Below are positions 11,760 to 48,851 of a DNA stretch of 64,000 nt, piece by piece. The notes under the pieces were generated by a model. That model saw nothing but the letters and a program-made list of their open reading frames with translations. It made no database searches and was not told the DNA's origin. The stretch spans positions 199,165 through 263,164 of the forward strand of contig CBDAUZ010000002.1 of NCBI GenBank assembly GCA_965200745.1, given 5' to 3'. Position 1 is the stretch's first letter. Each line of letters begins with the position of its first letter. The DNA is from Alphaproteobacteria bacterium. GTDB taxonomy: Bacteria; Pseudomonadota; Alphaproteobacteria; SP197. Made by a program: the position numbers and the translations under genes.

Positions 11760-14144
11760 TCAGAGTTCCGAAACCGCCTGGTTCATTATGGCAACAAACA
11801 TGTCCGCATTTGCCTTGTCGAACACCAGTGGCGGCCGAATTTTGAAAACATTGCCATGCGGTCCCTCACGGCCAACAAGTACGCCAAGTTCCCGCATGCG
11901 ATTCTGCACCCTGTGCGTAATCTCCGGCGCCGGGGTCCTCGCACGCCGGTCGTGTACGAATTCGACGCCGGCGATCAGGCCGCACCCCCTGACATCGCCG
12001 ATGCAATCGTGCTGGTCCAGGAGCTTTTTCATCTCGTTTTTCAGATAGTCGCCCGTTTCCCGTGCATTCGACTGCAGTTCCTCGCGCTCGATGACATCGA
12101 GAACCGCGAGGCCTGCGGCACAGGCAACAGGATTGCCCCCGAATGTACTGAACAGGCCGTCCGTGGCCTCGTTGAATTCCGACAGGATCTCGCTTCGGGT
12201 CACGACAACACCGAGTGGATAACCACCGCCAACCGGTTTTCCCAATGTCACAAAGTCAGGTGTGACACCGTAGTACTCAAATCCCCACATGGTGCGCCCC
12301 GGACGGGCGAATCCGAATTGAACCTCGTCAGCCACATTCATTCCGCCGGCACGTTTGACCCGTGCAAAAACTTCTCCGAGATAGGTTGGCGGTACATCAG
12401 GGATCCCGTTCGAACAGAACGACGTATCGATCATGAAGAGCGCCGTTCCCATGCCCGTCGATTCCAGTTCGGCAATTGCCTGGTCCGCAAAGGATGCGTA
12501 CTTGCCCGCCAGATCCGGCTCATCTTCACGGTAGGGACCGCGATACGGATCCGGCGCAACAAGGGCACGTACATGTGGTGCCAGATTGGAGGAGTGTTCG
12601 GGCGAAAGATGTGCGATGGCATCCGTGATGCCGTGATATGCGTCCTTGACAATGAGGCAACCACGATTGCCCGTCAGCACATTGGCCATCCTGAAGGCCA
12701 TGTCATTCGCCTCGCTGCCGGAATTGACAAAAACACAGCGGTCGAGTTCTGCCGGCATGGTGGCGAGAAGCCTCTCCGCATAGGCAGCAAGGTTGTCGTA
12801 GAGGTAGCGCGTGTTTGTACCGAGCGCCGCAGTCTGGCGTGCTATCGCATTGACTACGTGCGGGTGGCAATGGCCGACACTGGGAACGTTGTTGTAGGCG
12901 TCCAGAAACGCCCGGCCATTGGCATCGTAGAGCCACGCTCCCCTGCCCCGTTCCACGTGTATCGGTTTCTCATAGAACAGGCTGAGGTGCTTGCCGACAA
13001 CACGGTGACGTCGTCCGAGTACATGTTCGGTGTCATCTGCTTCGGGTGTCGTGGTCGTACCGATCCTGCAGCGGGTCGGCATGCGCAGCACTTCGCGAAA
13101 CCGCTGTGTTGCCCGTTCAGGGCCGATTGATTCGAGTCGCTCCAGATCTTTGGTGATCTGTTCGAGATACAGTTCGTCGTGGGACCTTCCCGCGCGGCCC
13201 ACATGGAATCTCGACAATGTGATCACACCGGAAATCGCCAGGCGGGCAACAATGCAATCGTAGAGGACGTCGACCTCTTCCTCCTCGAGCGGAATCACCG
13301 AGTCGAATCCGACCGCAACATTTTCAAACATGCTCAGCGGATCATCAAACTCGTGGCCGTAATCGTCGCAAGCCAGTGCGAGTTCAACGGCGAGCGGACC
13401 ATGGATCATGTCGCCAAAGTCGATAATGCTGACCGGAGTCTCCGGATCGTTTTCGTCGACCAGAACATTCGAGCTGTTGGCGTCATTGTGAATGACCTGG
13501 GACCGCATGGTTTCAAGACGCGGCAAGGTTCCTTCAATGAACCGGTCCAGCACGGTCTCGATGCATTGGCGCAATGTGCGGTTCTCGAACAGACCGGTAT
13601 GAACACGCAGCGTCGGCGCCTGACGAATATCCCAGACAAGGGTATGCATGGACGATGGGTGGACAAATCCGCGCAGAGCACGATCCGTTCGCGCAACCAG
13701 CGCCCCCACACCTCTCAGTGTACGCCTCGTGTATTCAGTTTCGCCGACCGGTGTACCAGGCAACCACGAAAGGACCCTGACAATACTTGTGCGACCATCG
13801 CGAAGGGTCACGTTGCGTGACAATTCACCCGAGGTTGTCGGGACCACTTCAGGTATCTGCAGCGCACCATCTGCCTTGGCGATATGCAGCAATGCCCGCG
13901 TCTGGAAGTCGATGACGCCGGGGTCTTCTTCGGGATGGAAGTACTTCAGGATCCAGCGCCCGTTCTCACCCGTGATAGCGAAGTTGGTATCCCTGTCGGA
14001 CTTGCAGGGGGTAAATTCACCCTCCAGTCCAAAAATCCTGCTTGCGAGTTGCATCGCCTCTGCAACACTCACCTCAGGCCGGTTCGAGACGAGATACTTG
14101 ATGTTCTCGGCAAATTCACTCAATGCAACTCTCCCCCGCAGCAA
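11760..14144 (-). CDS. Bifunctional fusion. N-terminal aminoglycoside-phosphotransferase-fold kinase (hydroxylysine/ethanolamine-kinase-like, AGPHD1-like) joined to a C-terminal class-III aminotransferase-fold domain (AGXT2L/ethanolamine-phosphate phospho-lyase-like).
   Basis: 794 aa. N-terminal half has APH/ChoK motifs (VIHNDANSSNVLVD, IIDFGD). C-terminal half has class-III AT motifs (DEVQFGFARPG, TLGKPVGGG, LIGDVRGCGL). First codon is TTG. Confidence 0.85.
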   Translation of the reverse strand: MLRGRVALSEFAENIKYLVSNRPEVSVAEAMQLASRIFGLEGEFTPCKSDRDTNFAITGENGRWILKYFHPEEDPGVIDFQTRALLHIAKADGALQIPEVVPTTSGELSRNVTLRDGRTSIVRVLSWLPGTPVGETEYTRRTLRGVGALVARTDRALRGFVHPSSMHTLVWDIRQAPTLRVHTGLFENRTLRQCIETVLDRFIEGTLPRLETMRSQVIHNDANSSNVLVDENDPETPVSIIDFGDMIHGPLAVELALACDDYGHEFDDPLSMFENVAVGFDSVIPLEEEEVDVLYDCIVARLAISGVITLSRFHVGRAGRSHDELYLEQITKDLERLESIGPERATQRFREVLRMPTRCRIGTTTTPEADDTEHVLGRRHRVVGKHLSLFYEKPIHVERGRGAWLYDANGRAFLDAYNNVPSVGHCHPHVVNAIARQTAALGTNTRYLYDNLAAYAERLLATMPAELDRCVFVNSGSEANDMAFRMANVLTGNRGCLIVKDAYHGITDAIAHLSPEHSSNLAPHVRALVAPDPYRGPYREDEPDLAGKYASFADQAIAELESTGMGTALFMIDTSFCSNGIPDVPPTYLGEVFARVKRAGGMNVADEVQFGFARPGRTMWGFEYYGVTPDFVTLGKPVGGGYPLGVVVTRSEILSEFNEATDGLFSTFGGNPVACAAGLAVLDVIEREELQSNARETGDYLKNEMKKLLDQHDCIGDVRGCGLIAGVEFVHDRRARTPAPEITHRVQNRMRELGVLVGREGPHGNVFKIRPPLVFDKANADMFVAIMNQAVSEL

Positions 14145-24244: not shown

Positions 24245-25672
24245 ATGATCCGCTATTGTGAACCACAGACCATGAAGGACGCGATTGCCTCGCCCGAACG
24301 CATTGCGGAAACCGGCGAATGGCTGAGAAAGAACGGCGTACGCTATGTCCTGTGCTGCTGGATCGACCTTTTTGGACAGCCCAAGACAAAACCCGTGCCG
24401 ATCAGCGATTGGGAGCGACTGTGTGCAGGAAACGGCCCGCAGTTTGCCGTACACTCTGTCTCATTCGTACCTGAACTCGGGCCCGCAGACCCGGACCAGA
24501 TCATGGTTCCGGATCTTGACTCCCTCCTCCTGTGTCCCTGGGACAAGTCAAGTGCGTGGGTGTTTGCCGATTTGTGGTGGCAGGACAAACCCTACAGCCA
24601 TTGTCCACGCAGCACGCTCAAACGAATACTCCGCGAATGTGAGGCACAGGGCTATCACGTCTATGCGGGTATTGAACCCGAATTCATTGTCATGCGCTGG
24701 AAGGACGGGCATCCGGTCAAGGCGATGGACAACGACCCGGCTCCTGGAGAAGGAATACGTCCACGCCGCCAGGCGTTCGGATATGACGTCGAGTACTCGA
24801 TTGATTCGATGGGTTTTCTCGGTGACATGATCGAGATTCTCGACAACGTGCTCGATTGGGATCTCCACGACGTCGTCGCCGAGGGCGCATACAGCCAGTT
24901 TGAACTCGACTTTGGCTACACCGACGCGCTGGGTATGGCCGACAGGTTGGTCTTCCTGCGCATACTTCTGAAGGAAGTCGCCAAGAAACATGGAATGTTC
25001 GTCACTTTCATGCCCAAGCCCACAATCGGCGACTGGCGTTCAGGAGCGCACATAAACGCATCCATGCGACATGTTGACACGCCGGATGAGAATCTCTTCG
25101 AAACCGCGGAAGGAAACTGGTCGAGCGAGGCACTCCACGCGGTTGGGGGACTCTTGCGGCATGGTGGCGCCTTGACCGCGATTGCCTGTTCAACGGTCAA
25201 TTCCTACAACGGACTTGTTCCGCGGGTCGGCGGATTTGAGGGTGGCACTGTCACCTGGGCGCCAACTCACATGACCTATGGCTACAACAATCGCTCGGCG
25301 ATGCTTCGCTTGCCGCAAAATCGGTTCTGTATCGAAAACCGGGCTGCCGACATGTGCATGAACCCCTATCTGTCCCTGGGCGTTACGGCTGCCAGCATGA
25401 CGCGTGGGATTGTCGAGAAACTCGATCCCGGAGCGCCGCTCAACGAGGACCTCTATTCTCTGAGCGAGGCCGATATTGCCGCGTCCGGGGCACAACGGCT
25501 GCCGCAAAACCTCCTCGAAGCCGCATTGACCTTGCGCGAAGACGATTTTGTTCGTGATACGATTGGCTCCGGAATGCACAAGTCATTCCTCGAATACAAG
25601 TTCGACGAATGGGAACGATATCACCAGGCAGTGACGGACTGGGAGGTTCAGGAATACCTGAGACTATACTGA
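24245..25672 (+). CDS. Glutamine-synthetase-family ligase (GS-like; gamma-glutamyl-amine synthetase type, as PuuA/GmaS/IpuC/AtdA1).
   Basis: 475 aa. GS catalytic-domain motifs (GIEPEFIV, ...HINAS..., NRSAMLRLP). AGGAGA SD 7 nt before ATG 24245. Confidence 0.85.
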   Translation: MIRYCEPQTMKDAIASPERIAETGEWLRKNGVRYVLCCWIDLFGQPKTKPVPISDWERLCAGNGPQFAVHSVSFVPELGPADPDQIMVPDLDSLLLCPWDKSSAWVFADLWWQDKPYSHCPRSTLKRILRECEAQGYHVYAGIEPEFIVMRWKDGHPVKAMDNDPAPGEGIRPRRQAFGYDVEYSIDSMGFLGDMIEILDNVLDWDLHDVVAEGAYSQFELDFGYTDALGMADRLVFLRILLKEVAKKHGMFVTFMPKPTIGDWRSGAHINASMRHVDTPDENLFETAEGNWSSEALHAVGGLLRHGGALTAIACSTVNSYNGLVPRVGGFEGGTVTWAPTHMTYGYNNRSAMLRLPQNRFCIENRAADMCMNPYLSLGVTAASMTRGIVEKLDPGAPLNEDLYSLSEADIAASGAQRLPQNLLEAALTLREDDFVRDTIGSGMHKSFLEYKFDEWERYHQAVTDWEVQEYLRLY

Positions 25673-26688
25673 TGGCGAACAGTTACGAGCGTTTTGATCT
25701 CGGTGATGTCACCCTCCAGTCCGGCGAGGTCATGCGAGACGCATGGCTGGCGTACAAGACATGGGGTGACCTGAATGACAGGCGGGACAACGCGGTTCTG
25801 ATACCGACCTATTTCACCGGTACGCATGAAAACAATGAAGCATATTTCGGTCGCGGACGGGCGATCGATCCAGCGCGGCACTTCGTCATTTCTGTCAACC
25901 TGTTCGGGAACGGATTTTCCAAGTCTCCCAGCAACTCCGGACAACCGGGCTGCGGCTCGGACATGCCGGCTGCCACCTACCACGACAATGTGGCTTGCCA
26001 GCATCGGCTCGTGACCGAACGATTGCGTGTACGCAAGTTCGCACTCGTCACCGGCTGGTCGATGGGTGGTTGTCAGACGTTCGAATGGGGCGTCCAGTTT
26101 CCCGACATGATGGAGGCTCTTCTGCCATTTTGCGGTTCAGCCCGAACCGCGCCACACAACAAGGTCTTTCTGGAAGGCGTCAAGGCGGCGCTGTGCGCCG
26201 ATCCCGTCTGGAATGACGGGCGCTACACCGAACAACCGATCGTCGGATTGAGGGCGTTCGCACGGGTTTATGCGGGATGGGCGTATTCCCAGACCTGGTA
26301 TCGCAATGGCCGATTTCGAGAACTCGGGCACGACACGATCGAGGACCTGTTGGTCGATTGGGAAAACGATCACGTGGACAACTGGGACGCAAACGATCTC
26401 CTTTACAAATTGAATACTTGGACGAACGGTGATGTCAGTGCCAATGCGAAACACAACGGCGATCTCAGAGGTGCCCTGGGTGCCGTCAGGGCACGGTGCA
26501 TCGTCATGCCCTGCTCTACCGATCTCTACTTTCCGCCTGAGGACAACGCGATAGAGGTTGGATACATGCCGCAGGCAGAATTGCGACCGTTTGAAACCGA
26601 GTGGGGGCACTGTGCGCCAAGCGGTACAGCGGTTCCCGCATTTCACCGCTTTTATGACGAAGCCGTGCGCGATTTACTCAACGGTTGA
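25672..26688 (+). CDS. Homoserine O-acetyltransferase (MetX)-like alpha/beta-hydrolase-fold acyltransferase/hydrolase.
   Basis: Nucleophile elbow GWSMGG, MetX-family N-terminal region (LAYKTWGDLN...AVLIPTYFTGTHE) and C-terminal His region. ATG overlaps the GS-like stop (TGATG). Confidence 0.8.
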   Translation: MANSYERFDLGDVTLQSGEVMRDAWLAYKTWGDLNDRRDNAVLIPTYFTGTHENNEAYFGRGRAIDPARHFVISVNLFGNGFSKSPSNSGQPGCGSDMPAATYHDNVACQHRLVTERLRVRKFALVTGWSMGGCQTFEWGVQFPDMMEALLPFCGSARTAPHNKVFLEGVKAALCADPVWNDGRYTEQPIVGLRAFARVYAGWAYSQTWYRNGRFRELGHDTIEDLLVDWENDHVDNWDANDLLYKLNTWTNGDVSANAKHNGDLRGALGAVRARCIVMPCSTDLYFPPEDNAIEVGYMPQAELRPFETEWGHCAPSGTAVPAFHRFYDEAVRDLLNG

Positions 26689-44056: not shown

Positions 44057-44995
44057 TCAGGTTTCTTCGTCAGGGTCTTCAAGAACGGCCTGAAGTTCAT
44101 TCCATTTTCGGGTGGAAAGACCACTTGCCTGCTGGGAAACAGTTTCTCCCTTGATCATCCTTCGTATGACGTCCAACTGTTGCGCCGTCAGCTCGGCACC
44201 ATCGAGTTTTGCGTCTTCAAATGCGGCAAAAGCCAGAGGCACCCATGCCCGCACGGTTTCCATCATAGCCTGTGCATAGCATCGTATCTCATATTGCGCA
44301 TGAGGATCCGCGCGTAACGACAGGAATTGAAAAAGATTATGTAGATCTGTCTTCCAATACCACTGGGTATAGATGTTGACAGGCAGGTTCATCCGGGCGA
44401 GTTCACGCGCCAGTCCGCGTCGCGAGTCATCCCGATGCGGACCCTCGTTCAGCATCTGCTCGTAGTGGTCGTACGCGGTCGCCGCATCCTGCCGTAACAT
44501 GTCGAGGACCCACCGCGCCTCGTCGTTCGCAAGAACATCACCGCGTCCCTGGCGGTTCTGGGACGTCTGCGCGGCAAGATTCTCCGGTTTCGGCACATAG
44601 AATTCCCGGTCAAGGATCGAATAGCGTGCAGAGTACTCGTTGACGTTTGCGGTACGGTGCCTGATCCACTGGCGCGCAACAAAAACCGGCAGCTTTACGT
44701 GGTACTTGATCTCGCACATTTCGAATGGCGTCGAATGACGATGTCGCATGAGGTAGTCGATGAGCGCTGCATCGCCTCTGAGTGATTTTGTACCTCGGCC
44801 ATATGAGACACGCGCAGCCTGCACAATTGCAGCGTCGTTGCCCATGTAATCGACAACACGTATGAACCCATGATCAAGGACCGGTATCGCCGTATGCAGG
44901 ATCTTCTCCAGTTCCGGACTGCACGTACGTGCGGTCTGCGAGGTTTCCGCGCGCTGTTCGGCGATCTCACCTTGCTGTTCAGCGGTCAGTCGCAT
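44057..44995 (-). CDS. thyX: Flavin-dependent thymidylate synthase ThyX.
   Basis: ThyX motif [15 protein letters not shown] (RHR-x7-S) and [15 protein letters not shown]. Start chosen at MRLTAEQQ (ATG 44995); the ORF track gives 45067. Confidence 0.9.
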
Positions 44996-45098
44996 TCGGA
45001 AGTTTCCGTGTTGGCCCGAACAGGTTGATGCGCAAACAACCCCGGTTTCGACGCCGGGATTGGACAACTGCTATCCGGGTGAATGCCAAAAATTGATA

Positions 45099-45995
45099 TC
45101 AACATCTTCTGAAGTACTCGTTTCTGTGCCAGCGGACATATACGGGGTCGGGCGTCCACTCCGGACGCCTTGGTGAACGTATCGGTTCTCCTGTCAAACC
45201 CAGCAAGGTTTCTCGCGAATCTCCCTGCACGCTATCGGATACGAGGACGGTGTAGTCACTTTGGTGCTTTTCAAGGCTGATCGCACCGGCATCGAATGCC
45301 TTGTGGTGCAGAACACACAATGCCAGTCCGTTGTTGTTCGTATCAGGTCCATTGTCGCAAACAGGCTTGATATGTGCCGCCTCCAGCGAAAAAAATTCTG
45401 AATCGATGCTCAGGTCAAGGCCGCAAATTGCACAGGATGCGCGATAGGCATCGAGTATCCTGTCGCGAAAATCACTGCTGCGTCGAAGCACTGTGCGACG
45501 ATACCGCATCGGGCTGATTTCCCGATTGAATCCCACGTCGCTCAGGATCCGTTCGTGCCAGGTCTCCGGAAAGAACCTCTCGAGAAGATGGTCCACAACC
45601 TCTGCGACCAGACTGACGTCGTTTTGCAGCATCTCATGGACCTCGATCGGTAAACCACCCGCGACATGGTGTTCTTTCATTTGCGGAACACTGAAAGTGC
45701 CATCGCTCAGAACCTTCAGGTTATCGCACCCTGGTACATCCCAAAGGGAATCGGAACGAAGAAACGAGAATGGAAACTGCGGGCGTCTTCTTGAAGCAAT
45801 ACGCGGGCCGAATTTATTCAGTAGAGATTCCAGCGGTTGCTCCATCTCGGCGTAACGCACAAGTCTATCGGCGCCGTCCTGGAGTTTTGCCAACATGTAT
45901 AGAAGGAGCAGCGCCTTGTGTGGGCTTCGCCTTCCTTTCCGCGTATGAGGATTGAGGTTTTTGAACCGCTCCAGAACTTCCGCTCGATCCATCAT
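45099..45995 (-). CDS. HNH-endonuclease-family protein with an N-terminal DNA-recognition-like domain (possible stand-alone modification-dependent / type IV restriction nuclease).
   Basis: Complete HNH motif CAICGLDL...LEAAHIKP...NNNGLALCVLHHKAFD (C-x2-C, His, Asn, HH). The N-terminal PHKALLLLYMLAKL segment resembles the DNA-binding domains that precede HNH in such nucleases. Local GC (~50%) is lower than the surroundings. Confidence 0.7.
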   Translation of the reverse strand: MMDRAEVLERFKNLNPHTRKGRRSPHKALLLLYMLAKLQDGADRLVRYAEMEQPLESLLNKFGPRIASRRRPQFPFSFLRSDSLWDVPGCDNLKVLSDGTFSVPQMKEHHVAGGLPIEVHEMLQNDVSLVAEVVDHLLERFFPETWHERILSDVGFNREISPMRYRRTVLRRSSDFRDRILDAYRASCAICGLDLSIDSEFFSLEAAHIKPVCDNGPDTNNNGLALCVLHHKAFDAGAISLEKHQSDYTVLVSDSVQGDSRETLLGLTGEPIRSPRRPEWTPDPVYVRWHRNEYFRRC

Positions 45996-46597
45996 GCGTC
46001 AAATCTTACGGCACGGCAGGCAAGATTGCCTATAGGTCCAACGATCGGACTTGTGAAAACGACCGATGCCGTGTGTTCGTTTCGTGGCCAACCGGACGGA
46101 TCGCCGCAAGGGTCACGCAACGACCCGAACGGAATTCAACCGACGATCTGCTTGTTCCCGTTATCAAACTGACAAGACCAGCCAGCCGATTGCCAGAGAA
46201 CCGGCTCATACACGATCGGGTTCGCGTCGTTGATTGGAGGAATCAATAGCTGGAAACCACCCTTGATACCCTGAGCGCTGCGCGTGCCATCTCGGCATCT
46301 GGTGTTGTGCGACAACAAGCCGAGGCTATCGCAAGCGCAATCGGCGACGTGAATTGAAAACATCCACGAGCGTCGCAACGGTCAGGGCCGACATTTCGGT
46401 CCTTGGATCGGACGTTGCTTTCCTTGAATGGGTCGGCGGGTTCAACATCGTTCTCTCACTTGCAGTCTTGATGATTGTCGCTACAGAACGCCTTCGAGAA
46501 TTCGACCAGGTCACGTGATCAGTTCTGAAACCACGAACCGTAAGCATGTCGAAACGCGCCATTCTGTTGCCTATCTGCCACCAATGGTTTAGATAAG

Positions 46598-46868
46598 GGT
46601 TGTCCGATTCATCGGACTATGGCGATAAACGCAGTACGGAATAGACGTTACGGACGCGGGGGCAGTACCCGCCGCCTCCACCAGTAATCTGAGGGGGCGA
46701 TACAGGTTCGACGTGCGTGGTAAAGGTCCTGTTTTTGCCCGGCATGATACCGCCGTTATCGGGTCAAAATCACAATCGCCAACGATAACGAGGCGTACGC
46801 TCTCGCTGCTTAAGCGGAAAGCGCGGTTCGGAGGGCACCGGGCAACAGAAGCCCTCCATGATTTCGCG
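46598..46868 (+). ncRNA. ssrA: tmRNA (ssrA), circularly permuted two-piece alphaproteobacterial type. Acceptor piece about 46598-46683, short linker, coding piece from about 46693; boundaries approximate.
   Basis: T-arm plus 3' acceptor strand ...GGACGCGGGGGCAGTACCCGCCGCCTCCACCA (ends 46683). The 5' acceptor strand GGGGGCGAUACAGGUUCGACG restarts at 46693, giving a G3:U pair with the 3' strand. Tag reading frame GCC AAC GAT AAC GAG GCG TAC GCT CTC GCT GCT TAA (46778-46813) encodes ANDNEAYALAA. Confidence 0.65.
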
Positions 46869-46885
46869 GAAGGAGCCGACAACCG

Positions 46886-47350
46886 ATGGACTACCGCGTA
46901 CTGGTCGAGGAAGCGCTTCGCGGTGTGATGATCCAGGCCCTGCGTCAGGTCGAACATCATGGACTTTCCGGAGAACATCACTTTTTCATTACATTTCGCA
47001 CCGACTATCCCGGCACCGGAATCAGCAAGGATCTCAAGGCGCGCTATCCCGAGGAAATTACAATCGTCCTGCAGAACCAGTTCTGGGGACTGAGAACTGA
47101 CTCCTCCGGTTTTTCTGTCAGTCTGTCCTTCAGTCGCAAGCCGCAGACCCTGCGTATCCCCTATGATGCCGTGACGTCATTTGTTGATCCCAGTGTCTCG
47201 TTTGCACTGCGGTTTGATTCCCATGGTGAAAGTGCGGACGAACAGATCGAAAGTCCCGGTTCAGGCAGCGTTGGTGTGGAACCTGTGGCGGTGAAAAGTC
47301 CCGATGAAACCTCCAAGGTCATATCGCTCGACGCATTTCGAAAGAAATAG
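46886..47350 (+). CDS. sspB: SspB-family ClpXP adaptor (stringent starvation protein B, alpha-type) for ssrA-tagged substrates.
   Basis: 154 aa. YRVLVEEALRGV...HHFFITFRTDYPGTGIS...YPEEITIVLQNQF...FSVSLSF...PYDAVTSFVDPSVSFALRF is the SspB fold pattern. AAGGAG SD. Directly downstream of ssrA. Confidence 0.75.
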   Translation: MDYRVLVEEALRGVMIQALRQVEHHGLSGEHHFFITFRTDYPGTGISKDLKARYPEEITIVLQNQFWGLRTDSSGFSVSLSFSRKPQTLRIPYDAVTSFVDPSVSFALRFDSHGESADEQIESPGSGSVGVEPVAVKSPDETSKVISLDAFRKK

Positions 47351-47450
47351 CTTCACTCCGCCGGCCGTCTCATCATCATCGGTTTTCGTTCCGCGCGTTT
47401 AGAGCGCCGTCACCCGACAGTTCAGAAACAGACATCAAGGTGAAACAGCC

Positions 47451-48851
47451 ATGAGCGAATTCCGGGTCGAAAATGACACTCTTGGTGACGTCAACGTACC
47501 GGCGGACCGGTACTGGGGCGCACAGACGCAGCGTTCACTGGAGAACTTCAGGATCGGTGGCACTGCAGAGCGTATGCCACCACCGCTGATCTGCGCCTAC
47601 GGCTGCGTCAAACTGGCCGCCGTGCGAACCAACGCAAAGGCTGGAAGAATTTCCGGCACGTTGGCAGCAGCCATCGAACAGGCCGCACACGAAGTCATGG
47701 AAGGTCGTCTCATGGACCACTTTCCACTTGTTGTCTGGCAAACCGGTTCGGGAACGCAAACAAACATGAACGTCAACGAAGTCATCGCCAATCGTGCGAT
47801 CGAACTTCTCGGCGGCATTCCGGGCTCGAAAGATCCGGTTCACCCGAACGATCACGTGAACATGAGCCAGTCGTCGAATGACAGTTTTCCGACCGCCATG
47901 CATATCGCTGTGACAAGTGAGATCACGGACCGGCTCCTGCCATCTCTGGACCGGCTGCATGGCGCCCTGGCGGAGCGCGCACATGCGTTCCGGGAAATCG
48001 TGAAAATCGGCCGGACTCACCTGCAGGACGCCGTGCCTCTCACACTCGGTCAGGAGTTTTCAGGGTATGCACGGCAGGTCGAACTCGCGATCGCGCGGGT
48101 CCATACTGCAATGCCAACCTTGCTCGAACTCGCCATGGGCGGAACGGCTGTCGGTACGGGACTGAACAGCCCCGGCAGTTTCGGAAAGGACTTTGCCGAT
48201 GAGGTTGCAAACATCCGGGGAATTCCGTTTGTCACGGCAGTCAACAAATTCGAGGCGCTGGCCGCCCACGATGCATGTGTCGCGGTCTCGGGTGTACTGA
48301 ATGTCATCGCAGTCAGTCTCAACAAGATCGCCAACGACATACGTCTGCTCGGTTCCGGTCCACGCAGCGGTATTGGCGAGCTCGTGCTCCCGGCTAACGA
48401 ACCGGGAAGTTCAATCATGCCCGGAAAGGTCAATCCGACCCAGTGTGAAGCGCTGACAATGGTCTGTGCCGAAGTCATGGGCAACCACACGGCCGTGACG
48501 ATCGCCGGTGCGCAGGGCCATTTCGAACTGAACGTGTTCAAGCCCGTCATCGTGTTCAACGTACTGCGCTCGATCAGGTTGCTGTCCGATGCAATGGAGA
48601 GCTTCGCAGACCGATGCGTCAGCGGAATTCAGGCTGATGAATCCCGTGTTTCAGAGATGATGCAGCGGTCATTGATGCTCGTCACCGCCCTCAACCCGCA
48701 TGTCGGATACGACAATGCGGCACGGATCGCAAAAAAGGCACATGCAGACGGAACGACGCTGAAAGAGGCCGCGGGTTCCCTGGGACTGGTCACTGAAGAG
48801 GAATTCGACCGCCTGGTCGTACCGGCAGACATGGTCAGCCCCGGGGACTAG
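47451..48851 (+). CDS. fumC: Class II fumarate hydratase.
   Basis: 466 aa. [16 protein letters not shown] signature and conserved N-terminus [29 protein letters not shown]. Confidence 0.95.

Follow-up and report, generated by a model that had tools for sequence, protein, structure and literature searches.

Restriction endonucleases of the EcoWI group, including Ksp11411I, Bsp305I, Mae9806I and Sau43800I (PMC7461809), combine a sulfur-binding domain (SBD) and an HNH nuclease in a single chain of ~280-300 amino acids (aa) and occur as solitary genes without dnd partners. They have in common the motifs HK-x-LLL ... PF ... L ... W and a CxxC/CxxH zinc-finger HNH, and the conserved string of EcoWI-type proteins has been given as KPzzLL...PF...L...W plus that zinc finger (PMC7461809). 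Here we analyze a 64,000-nucleotide stretch of DNA from an uncultured, marine-type alphaproteobacterium (GenBank assembly GCA_965200745.1, contig CBDAUZ010000002.1, positions 199,165 to 263,164; hereafter the window), in which an open reading frame (ORF) between thyX and the transfer-messenger RNA (tmRNA) gene ssrA encodes a 298-aa protein with these two domains. The protein is almost certainly a member of the SBD-HNH family, and it probably functions as a restriction enzyme dependent on phosphorothioate (PT) modification, of the solitary, single-polypeptide, two-domain class exemplified by EcoWI and SprMcrA.

Other described systems share one or both of the domains. SprMcrA, from Streptomyces pristinaespiralis (7CC9, 7CCD, 7CCJ), has the same SBD-HNH arrangement, with a Y-P pair and tyrosine lid, a long base-reading L4 loop and Mn dependence. 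ScoMcrA, from Streptomyces coelicolor (5ZMM, 5ZMN, 5ZMO), is a 561-aa protein with a head domain and the order SBD-SRA-HNH, its SRA domain reading 5-methylcytosine and 5-hydroxymethylcytosine; the sulfur cavity is formed by H116, R117 (K in most homologs), Y164 (a variable position), P165 and A168, of which P165 and R117 are essential (PMC6224610). In Hga, from Hahella ganghwensis (8H0L), an SBD with a short, promiscuous L4 loop is fused to a PD-(D/E)XK nuclease, and the cavity comprises H25, K26, L75, P76 and H79 (PMC10602919). The roles of pocket and catalytic residues in these enzymes were set experimentally (PMC6224610, PMC10602919, PMC7461809). TagI, VcaM4I and EcoKMcrA, type IV HNH enzymes dependent on modified cytosine, follow the same logic of a reader joined to an HNH effector; their N-terminal readers are of other folds and recognize modified bases, not backbone sulfur.

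A predicted PT-dependent restriction endonuclease

The gene and its domains occupy the following positions in the window.

45099..45995, minus strand: SBD-HNH gene, 298 aa plus stop, predicted PT-dependent restriction endonuclease (ATG-started ORF; NF045808; AlphaFold)
45516..45995, minus strand: SBD, residues ~1-160 (phmmer and profile matches to the Hga, SprMcrA and ScoMcrA SBDs; Foldseek match to 5zmo)
45480..45515, minus strand: inter-domain linker, residues ~161-172, predicted to be disordered (predicted local distance difference test, pLDDT, <50 at residues 163-170)
45291..45434, minus strand: HNH beta-beta-alpha-Me core with CxxC...CxxH zinc finger, C188, C191, H208, N222, C227, H230, H231 and D235 (Pfam HNH_2; invariance; TagI and VcaM4I matches)

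An earlier note on this DNA, made from the sequence alone, had described a 298-aa protein with an HNH beta-beta-alpha-Me motif and, ahead of it, a candidate N-terminal reader of PT or otherwise modified DNA. Its coordinates and anatomy proved right, and the proposed reader was borne out by several lines of comparison. NCBIfam NF045808, a curated model named "phosphorothioated DNA-binding restriction endonuclease" (PT-DNA_restrict), matched the protein at an E-value of 6e-74 and 248.7 bits, against a cutoff of 180, and aligned end to end (residues 7-296 on model positions 3-284 of 284). Pfam HNH_2 matched residues 188-241 (E 4e-12), and PADLOC models for HNH and for type IV methyl-directed enzymes (type IV mREase) likewise recognized the protein. 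Searches with phmmer retrieved solved SBDs bound to PT-DNA (8h0l, 7cc9, 7ccd, 7ccj and 5zmo), the best single-sequence match to an SBD in the PDB being Hga (E 1.4e-6), and a profile built from 62 family members matched ScoMcrA at an E-value of 2e-20. PF26340 (DNA-SBD_ScoMcrA) was not reported by the local copy of Pfam for the query itself; homologs in the database carry it, with PF13391, as a precomputed domain pair. The C-terminus aligns with the HNH domain of TagI and is related to those of VcaM4I and EcoKMcrA.

An AlphaFold2 model built from the 62-sequence family alignment had a mean pLDDT of 90 and comprised two domains joined by a linker disordered at residues 163-170. The top PDB matches of this model in Foldseek were the SBDs of ScoMcrA and SprMcrA in complex with PT-DNA, followed by the HNH enzymes VcaM4I and TagI. 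The best structural match to the N-terminal domain was the ScoMcrA SBD (5zmo; E 2.6e-8, template-modeling (TM) score 0.84 over the target, root-mean-square deviation 2.5 Å); SprMcrA, ~20% identical in sequence, aligned over residues 7-156 of the SBD and gave TM scores of 0.71-0.74 over the target. Unlike ScoMcrA, the protein has neither a head domain nor an SRA domain: Pfam and PDB searches returned no SRA match, and only ~12 residues of linker separate SBD from HNH. Unlike Hga, it carries an HNH effector and not PD-(D/E)XK, as judged by Pfam and NCBIfam. Relative to the enterobacterial and plasmid members of the EcoWI group it is ~33-40% identical. It is thus not novel in kind, being a divergent addition to a characterized family that standard NCBI models can name.

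The public gene call for this protein (P0001, P0121) is 265 aa long, starts at M34 and drops residues 1-33 (45897-45995, minus strand), among them H26-K27 of the sulfur pocket. Because NF045808 aligns from residue 7, the 298-aa start is the correct one.

The sulfur pocket and nuclease site

In alignments with solved SBDs, residues 24-35 (SPHKALLLLYML) fall on the helix of the sulfur pocket, and two sets of codons specify the residues of the presumptive cavity.

45915..45920, minus strand: codons for H26-K27, which correspond to H116-R117 of ScoMcrA and H25-K26 of Hga (wall of the sulfur pocket, salt bridge), from alignments
45762..45776, minus strand: codons for F74-P75-F76-S77-F78, equivalent to ScoMcrA Y164-P165-x-x-A168, with P75 as pocket floor, mapped through the 62-member profile

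The ScoMcrA pocket (H116/R117/Y164/P165/A168) corresponds one to one with H26/K27/F74/P75/F78. K27 stands in place of R117, lysine being the commoner residue in the family, and F74 occupies the variable lid position. H26 is conserved in 61 of the 62 family members and both K27 and P75 in all of them, and the zinc-finger and HNH residues C188, C191, H208, N222, C227, H230, H231 and D235 are invariant across the 62 sequences; every one of these residues is intact in the 298-aa protein.

Several observations weigh against the proposed PT dependence. A28 departs from the proline present in 60 of 62 family members, S77 from tryptophan (52 of 62), F78 from histidine or arginine (59 of 62) and P211-V212 from W-H (~58 of 62), so that A replaces P in the "KP" of the EcoWI group and S77/F78 replace its W-H/R. 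S77 and F78 are unique among the 62; A28 and P211-V212 are common only to P0002, a relative of 46% identity. By analogy with ScoMcrA, in which the mutation A168I halved binding (PMC6224610), the bulkier F78 could change or weaken sulfur binding. The protein is moreover a divergent member, no more than 46% identical to any other sequence (its sister-strain copy aside); several family members are weakly PT-specific in vitro (PMC7461809); and a consensus scan of the locus yielded no convincing promoter or ribosome-binding site for the gene.

The same departures would be in keeping with a pocket that had drifted, leaving a non-specific or inactive HNH nickase, a decaying defense gene, or an enzyme directed to another PT context or to a different backbone or base modification. 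There is precedent in an N-terminally truncated SprMcrA SBD, which is a PT-independent nickase, and in two tested homologs of low activity (PMC7461809). We nonetheless regard such drift as unlikely: the experimentally critical H26, K27 and P75 and the full HNH and zinc set are intact, the structure model is confident, and natural variation is seen in validated SBDs at the position equivalent to F78 (A168 in ScoMcrA, H79 in Hga; PMC6224610, PMC10602919). Hga, which has an identical "SPHK", also lacks the proline after HK. Because the F78 position varies in this way (alanine in ScoMcrA, histidine in Hga) and Hga does without that proline, the atypical residues are a caveat to PT-dependent restriction, not a disqualification.

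P0002, the only relative above 45% identity, shares with the protein the sub-branch signatures "HKA" and "IKPVCDNGP". It is conceivable, although we think it quite improbable, that A28, S77 and F78, together with the altered HNH motif "IKPVCDNGP" of this sub-branch, reflect an SBD retuned to an unrecorded PT context or to another backbone modification of marine phages. Were this so, the protein would represent a new specificity class of backbone-modification-dependent nuclease, not another EcoWI-like enzyme.

Solitary context and homologs

The earlier expectation of a solitary type IV enzyme was also sustained, in that a scan covering +/-10 kb around the gene and 20 other larger ORFs of the window turned up neither a DNA methyltransferase nor a dnd/ssp gene. 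The larger ORFs scanned yielded no SRA domain either. Our view is that of 64 kb only, within a genome that includes a contig of ~500 kb, and a dnd/ssp system is possible elsewhere; this too counts against PT-dependent restriction of foreign DNA. It leaves room for a protein that, like SspE, forms the sensor-effector arm of a host PT system, working alongside self PT marks with dnd/ssp genes of different specificity encoded at a distance, and dnd clusters are indeed found close to a few percent of SBD-HNH genes (PMC7461809). Such an arrangement is very unlikely here: the scanned ORFs contained no dnd/ssp gene, cysteine desulfurase or DNA methyltransferase, the characterized SBD-HNH enzymes act in restriction of PT-modified DNA and show an anti-correlation with dnd (PMC7461809, PMC6224610), and homologs in other genomes also stand apart from dnd/ssp genes.

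The family to which these homologs belong is large and diverse, with 378 clusters (50% identity) at E <= 1e-30 and 1511 at E <= 1e-10. It is rare in phages and is represented on plasmids by homologs of 33-40% identity, annotated by PGAP as "phosphorothioated DNA-binding restriction endonuclease". P0002, the nearest homolog outside the species, is encoded between rimP-nusA-infB and uvrB in another organism (L001 10001-10906). Its sample ERZ number is close to that of a sister-strain contig described below (ERZ25068685, ERZ25068762, ERZ25068043), which suggests a common sequencing project. Three further homologs lie at unrelated loci, one with transposases and a PLD nuclease, one near HipA and HicB modules and one among housekeeping genes. 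In the five contexts examined all copies were solitary and at unrelated loci, with no dnd/ssp gene nearby, in agreement with a published frequency of SBD-HNH association with dnd of <3.6% (PMC7461809).

A lineage-specific insertion between thyX and ssrA

The gene is bordered by the following features.

44057..44995 (ORF 44057..45067), minus strand: thyX, flavin-dependent thymidylate synthase, the usual immediate divergent neighbor of ssrA (Pfam Thy1 E 1.5e-55; synteny)
45996..46566, strand not assigned: non-coding spacer of the insertion, ~570 bp, its fastest-evolving segment (without family, homolog or Rfam matches; 11 substitutions in 567 bp relative to the sister strain)
46567..46595, plus strand: likely ssrA promoter, TTGCCT, 17 nt, TAGATA, the right-hand limit of the insertion (by eye, from analogy with TTGGAA-N17-TATATC upstream of ssrA in L002)
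46563..46904, plus strand: ssrA, permuted two-piece alphaproteobacterial tmRNA gene with tag ANDNEAYALAA, a flank outside the insertion (Rfam RF01849, 251 bits, 46563-46859; ARAGORN, 46587-46904)

These assignments agree with the thyX flank and the gene-poor stretch leading to the tmRNA gene that had been reported previously. The probable start of thyX is the ATG at 44995, judged from the matching sequence context in L002, the closest relative (thyX 75% identical in amino acid sequence). At the other end, the end of ssrA given by ARAGORN (46904) overlaps the sspB start codon at 46886 and that given by Rfam is 46859, which leaves an uncertainty of ~45 nt in the mature 3' terminus of the coding piece.

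We compared the locus with 80 others bearing relatives of thyX (60-75% identity), drawn from Acetobacteraceae, Rhodospirillales, Rhodobacterales, Pelagibacterales and other Alphaproteobacteria. In most of them the permuted tmRNA gene is the immediate divergent neighbor of thyX across a gap of ~30-150 bp, often with sspB and fumC next, and none of the 80 carries an SBD-HNH homolog. From this adjacency, and from the lack of homologs there, it follows that the gene sits in a lineage-specific insertion of ~1.5 kb. The distance from ssrA to the thyX ATG is ~98 bp in L002 and ~1.6 kb in the window; DNA homology to L002 is lost within ~15 nt upstream of the thyX ATG, on the left side of the insertion, and homology to other loci begins only at ~46602, inside ssrA. 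The synteny evidence for accessory acquisition is strong. Horizontal acquisition, as the earlier note had proposed, accords with it and with the nearest non-self homolog (46%) lying at an unrelated locus; homologs are not conserved here in the manner of housekeeping genes.

Composition had been put forward as a further sign of transfer. The dip is real, the gene having a G+C content of 53.1% against 57.1 +/- 1.7% in the 48 other ORFs (z -2.3, second lowest), yet the difference is no more than 4 points and is matched by the core gene sspB (also 53.1%); neither G+C at third codon positions (z -1.2) nor codon usage (z -0.85, rank 7 of 49) is outlying. Because the dip is small and common to sspB, and codon usage is unremarkable, composition is too weak to show transfer by itself.

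The sole co-located copy of the gene occurs in a metagenomic contig from a sister strain (L082), which is 99.7% identical to the window over 11 kb and carries the same insertion. The two differ by 11 substitutions over the 567 bp of spacer at 45996-46562 and by 6 over the 897 bp of the SBD-HNH gene, of which 2 change an amino acid, with none across ssrA, fumC and the permease gene (~3.4 kb). Such a distribution would fit a spacer free of constraint and purifying selection on the SBD-HNH gene, although the numbers are small and, at the 1x coverage of L082, some differences may be sequencing errors. It also bears in both directions on the drift of the sulfur pocket considered above: the gene adjoins clearly unconstrained DNA, while in both strains its ORF remains uninterrupted and most of the changes in it are synonymous.

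Islands classically integrate at the 3' end of the tmRNA gene, and the locus had been taken for such an island site. That view did not stand. The insertion lies on the 5' side of ssrA, upstream of the likely promoter; sspB follows ssrA directly; the ORF list shows no integrase or transposase in the insertion; and searches for att-like direct repeats and terminal inverted repeats around it gave only short chance matches. On these grounds (the 5'-side position, the placement of sspB and the want of an integrase and att repeats) this is not a classic ssrA-targeting island. The same observations tell against a broader proposal in which the gene is not for defense, being a selfish, homing-type HNH endonuclease or the remnant of an ssrA-targeting integrative island. 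The gene is small and isolated and lies within a lineage-specific insertion beside ssrA, which might invite that interpretation, as might the varied cargo of the thyX-ssrA gap elsewhere, which includes a HigB-like toxin with a helix-turn-helix (HTH) partner. It is nevertheless extremely improbable: there is no integrase, transposase, ssrA direct repeat or flanking repeat, no host gene or intron is interrupted, and the N-terminal domain belongs with modification readers and not with the DNA-binding modules of homing endonucleases.

Besides that toxin and its partner, the gap in other loci (L004/L009/L021/L027/L028, L008, L025, L026, L050 and L068) holds an M20 peptidase in Roseomonas (with a GNAT protein in one locus), an S8 subtilase, an FkbM methyltransferase with a glucose/sorbosone dehydrogenase (GSDH) in a Pelagibacter single-cell genome, a 4.6-kb block including a DUF2161 PD-(D/E)XK protein, and a repeat-rich hypothetical protein. 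Given this variety, the thyX-ssrA gap seems permissive for small insertions that lack an integrase. Around it, the order thyX (divergent), ssrA, sspB, fumC is kept across distant Alphaproteobacteria, including Pelagibacterales and Acetobacteraceae (window 44057-48851; L002-L081). The tmRNA gene thereby adjoins the gene for SspB, the adaptor that brings ssrA-tagged proteins to ClpXP.

Spacer, transcription signals and neighboring genes

The spacer (45996-46566) contains no ORF with homologs or family matches and no Rfam match besides the tmRNA, and its folding is not unusual (z -0.40). It is possibly the decayed remnant of whatever brought the SBD-HNH gene in. A frameshifted segment in it, at 46240-46520 on the plus strand, resembles the N-terminus of CCDC90-like/DUF1640 proteins, reading "LETTLDTLSAARAISASGVVRQQAEAIASAIGDVN" and then "...ATVRADISVLGSDVAFLEWVGGFNIVLSLAVLMIV" in two frames. 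A DUF1640/CCDC90-like pseudogene was not supported, since the Pfam match reached only E 0.046 and 14 bits against a cutoff of 33.5, and neither a plasmid tblastn match nor a homolog in a large protein database was found. Weak tblastn matches had likewise raised a decayed second SBD-HNH copy, which was discarded when the six-frame score of the family profile proved to be -1.8 bits, equaled or beaten by 45 of 200 shuffled sequences.

Downstream of the gene, the predicted fold shows one further element.

45037..45062, minus strand: 9-bp hairpin with U-rich tail, a possible terminator between the HNH stop and thyX (minimum free energy fold of 44998-45101, minus strand; weak evidence)

The hairpin, which a consensus terminator scan did not report, may terminate the SBD-HNH transcript.

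Beyond ssrA lie sspB (46886..47350; Pfam SspB E 8e-38) and a fumC-like gene, assigned by position and by Pfam Lyase_1/FumaraseC_C matches to the same gene in the sister contig. All annotated neighbors within +/-10 kb are housekeeping or metabolic: a class III aminotransferase, components of a Liv-type ATP-binding cassette (ABC) transporter, a glutamine-synthetase-like protein, an amidohydrolase, thyX, sspB, fumC, an iron-type ABC permease and binding protein, a UvrD helicase, PrmA, aminopeptidase P and an S58 peptidase. The 20 further large ORFs of the window are metabolic as well, and include genes for cobalamin biosynthesis, an MttB-family methyltransferase, a hydantoinase and an ammonium transporter. 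Two other ORFs, unrelated to the SBD-HNH gene, may be recorded: a 794-aa fusion of an APH-type phosphotransferase domain with a class III aminotransferase (11760-14144, minus strand) and a 359-aa ORF without a Pfam match at E <= 1e-8 (25609-26688, plus strand).

Proposed mode of action and significance

By analogy with EcoWI, SprMcrA and ScoMcrA, the SBD would dock on double-stranded DNA and take the Rp sulfur of a PT linkage into a small hydrophobic cavity on its surface, with P75 as its floor and H26, K27, F74 and F78 as its walls; K27 would also form a salt bridge with the phosphorothioate. The short, flexible linker would then position the C-terminal zinc-finger HNH for nicking or cutting at a distance of a few base pairs, with H208 as the general base and N222 and H231 in the beta-beta-alpha-Me metal site. 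The targets would be incoming PT-modified DNA from phages or plasmids grown in dnd+ or ssp+ hosts, and only such DNA would be attacked because the host presumably has no PT modification in the recognized context. The gene itself would have arrived within the ~1.5-kb lineage-specific insertion that splits the normally adjacent, divergent promoters of thyX and ssrA. The analysis itself shows the family membership, the fold, the intact key residues, the solitary context and the lineage-specific insertion. For this enzyme we infer PT dependence, cleavage, sequence specificity, a metal requirement, expression and a PT-free host.

Current understanding of the SBD-HNH family is unchanged by this member, whose points of interest are modest: the atypical residues adjacent to the pocket, the truncated public call, and an insertion that has no integrase and separates the thyX and ssrA promoters. 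There is a lesson here for annotation, in that the 265-aa public call removes the sulfur-pocket helix, and the thyX-ssrA promoter gap emerges as a recurrent slot for small cargo in Alphaproteobacteria. Divergent SBD-HNH enzymes find use in the mapping of PT sites, as in EcoWI-seq, and as programmable binding modules guided by PT, and the atypical pocket residues make this one a reasonable candidate for specificity screening. If the prediction is true, this uncultured alphaproteobacterium would police incoming DNA for PT marks, and PT-modified phages or plasmids would be a real threat in its habitat.

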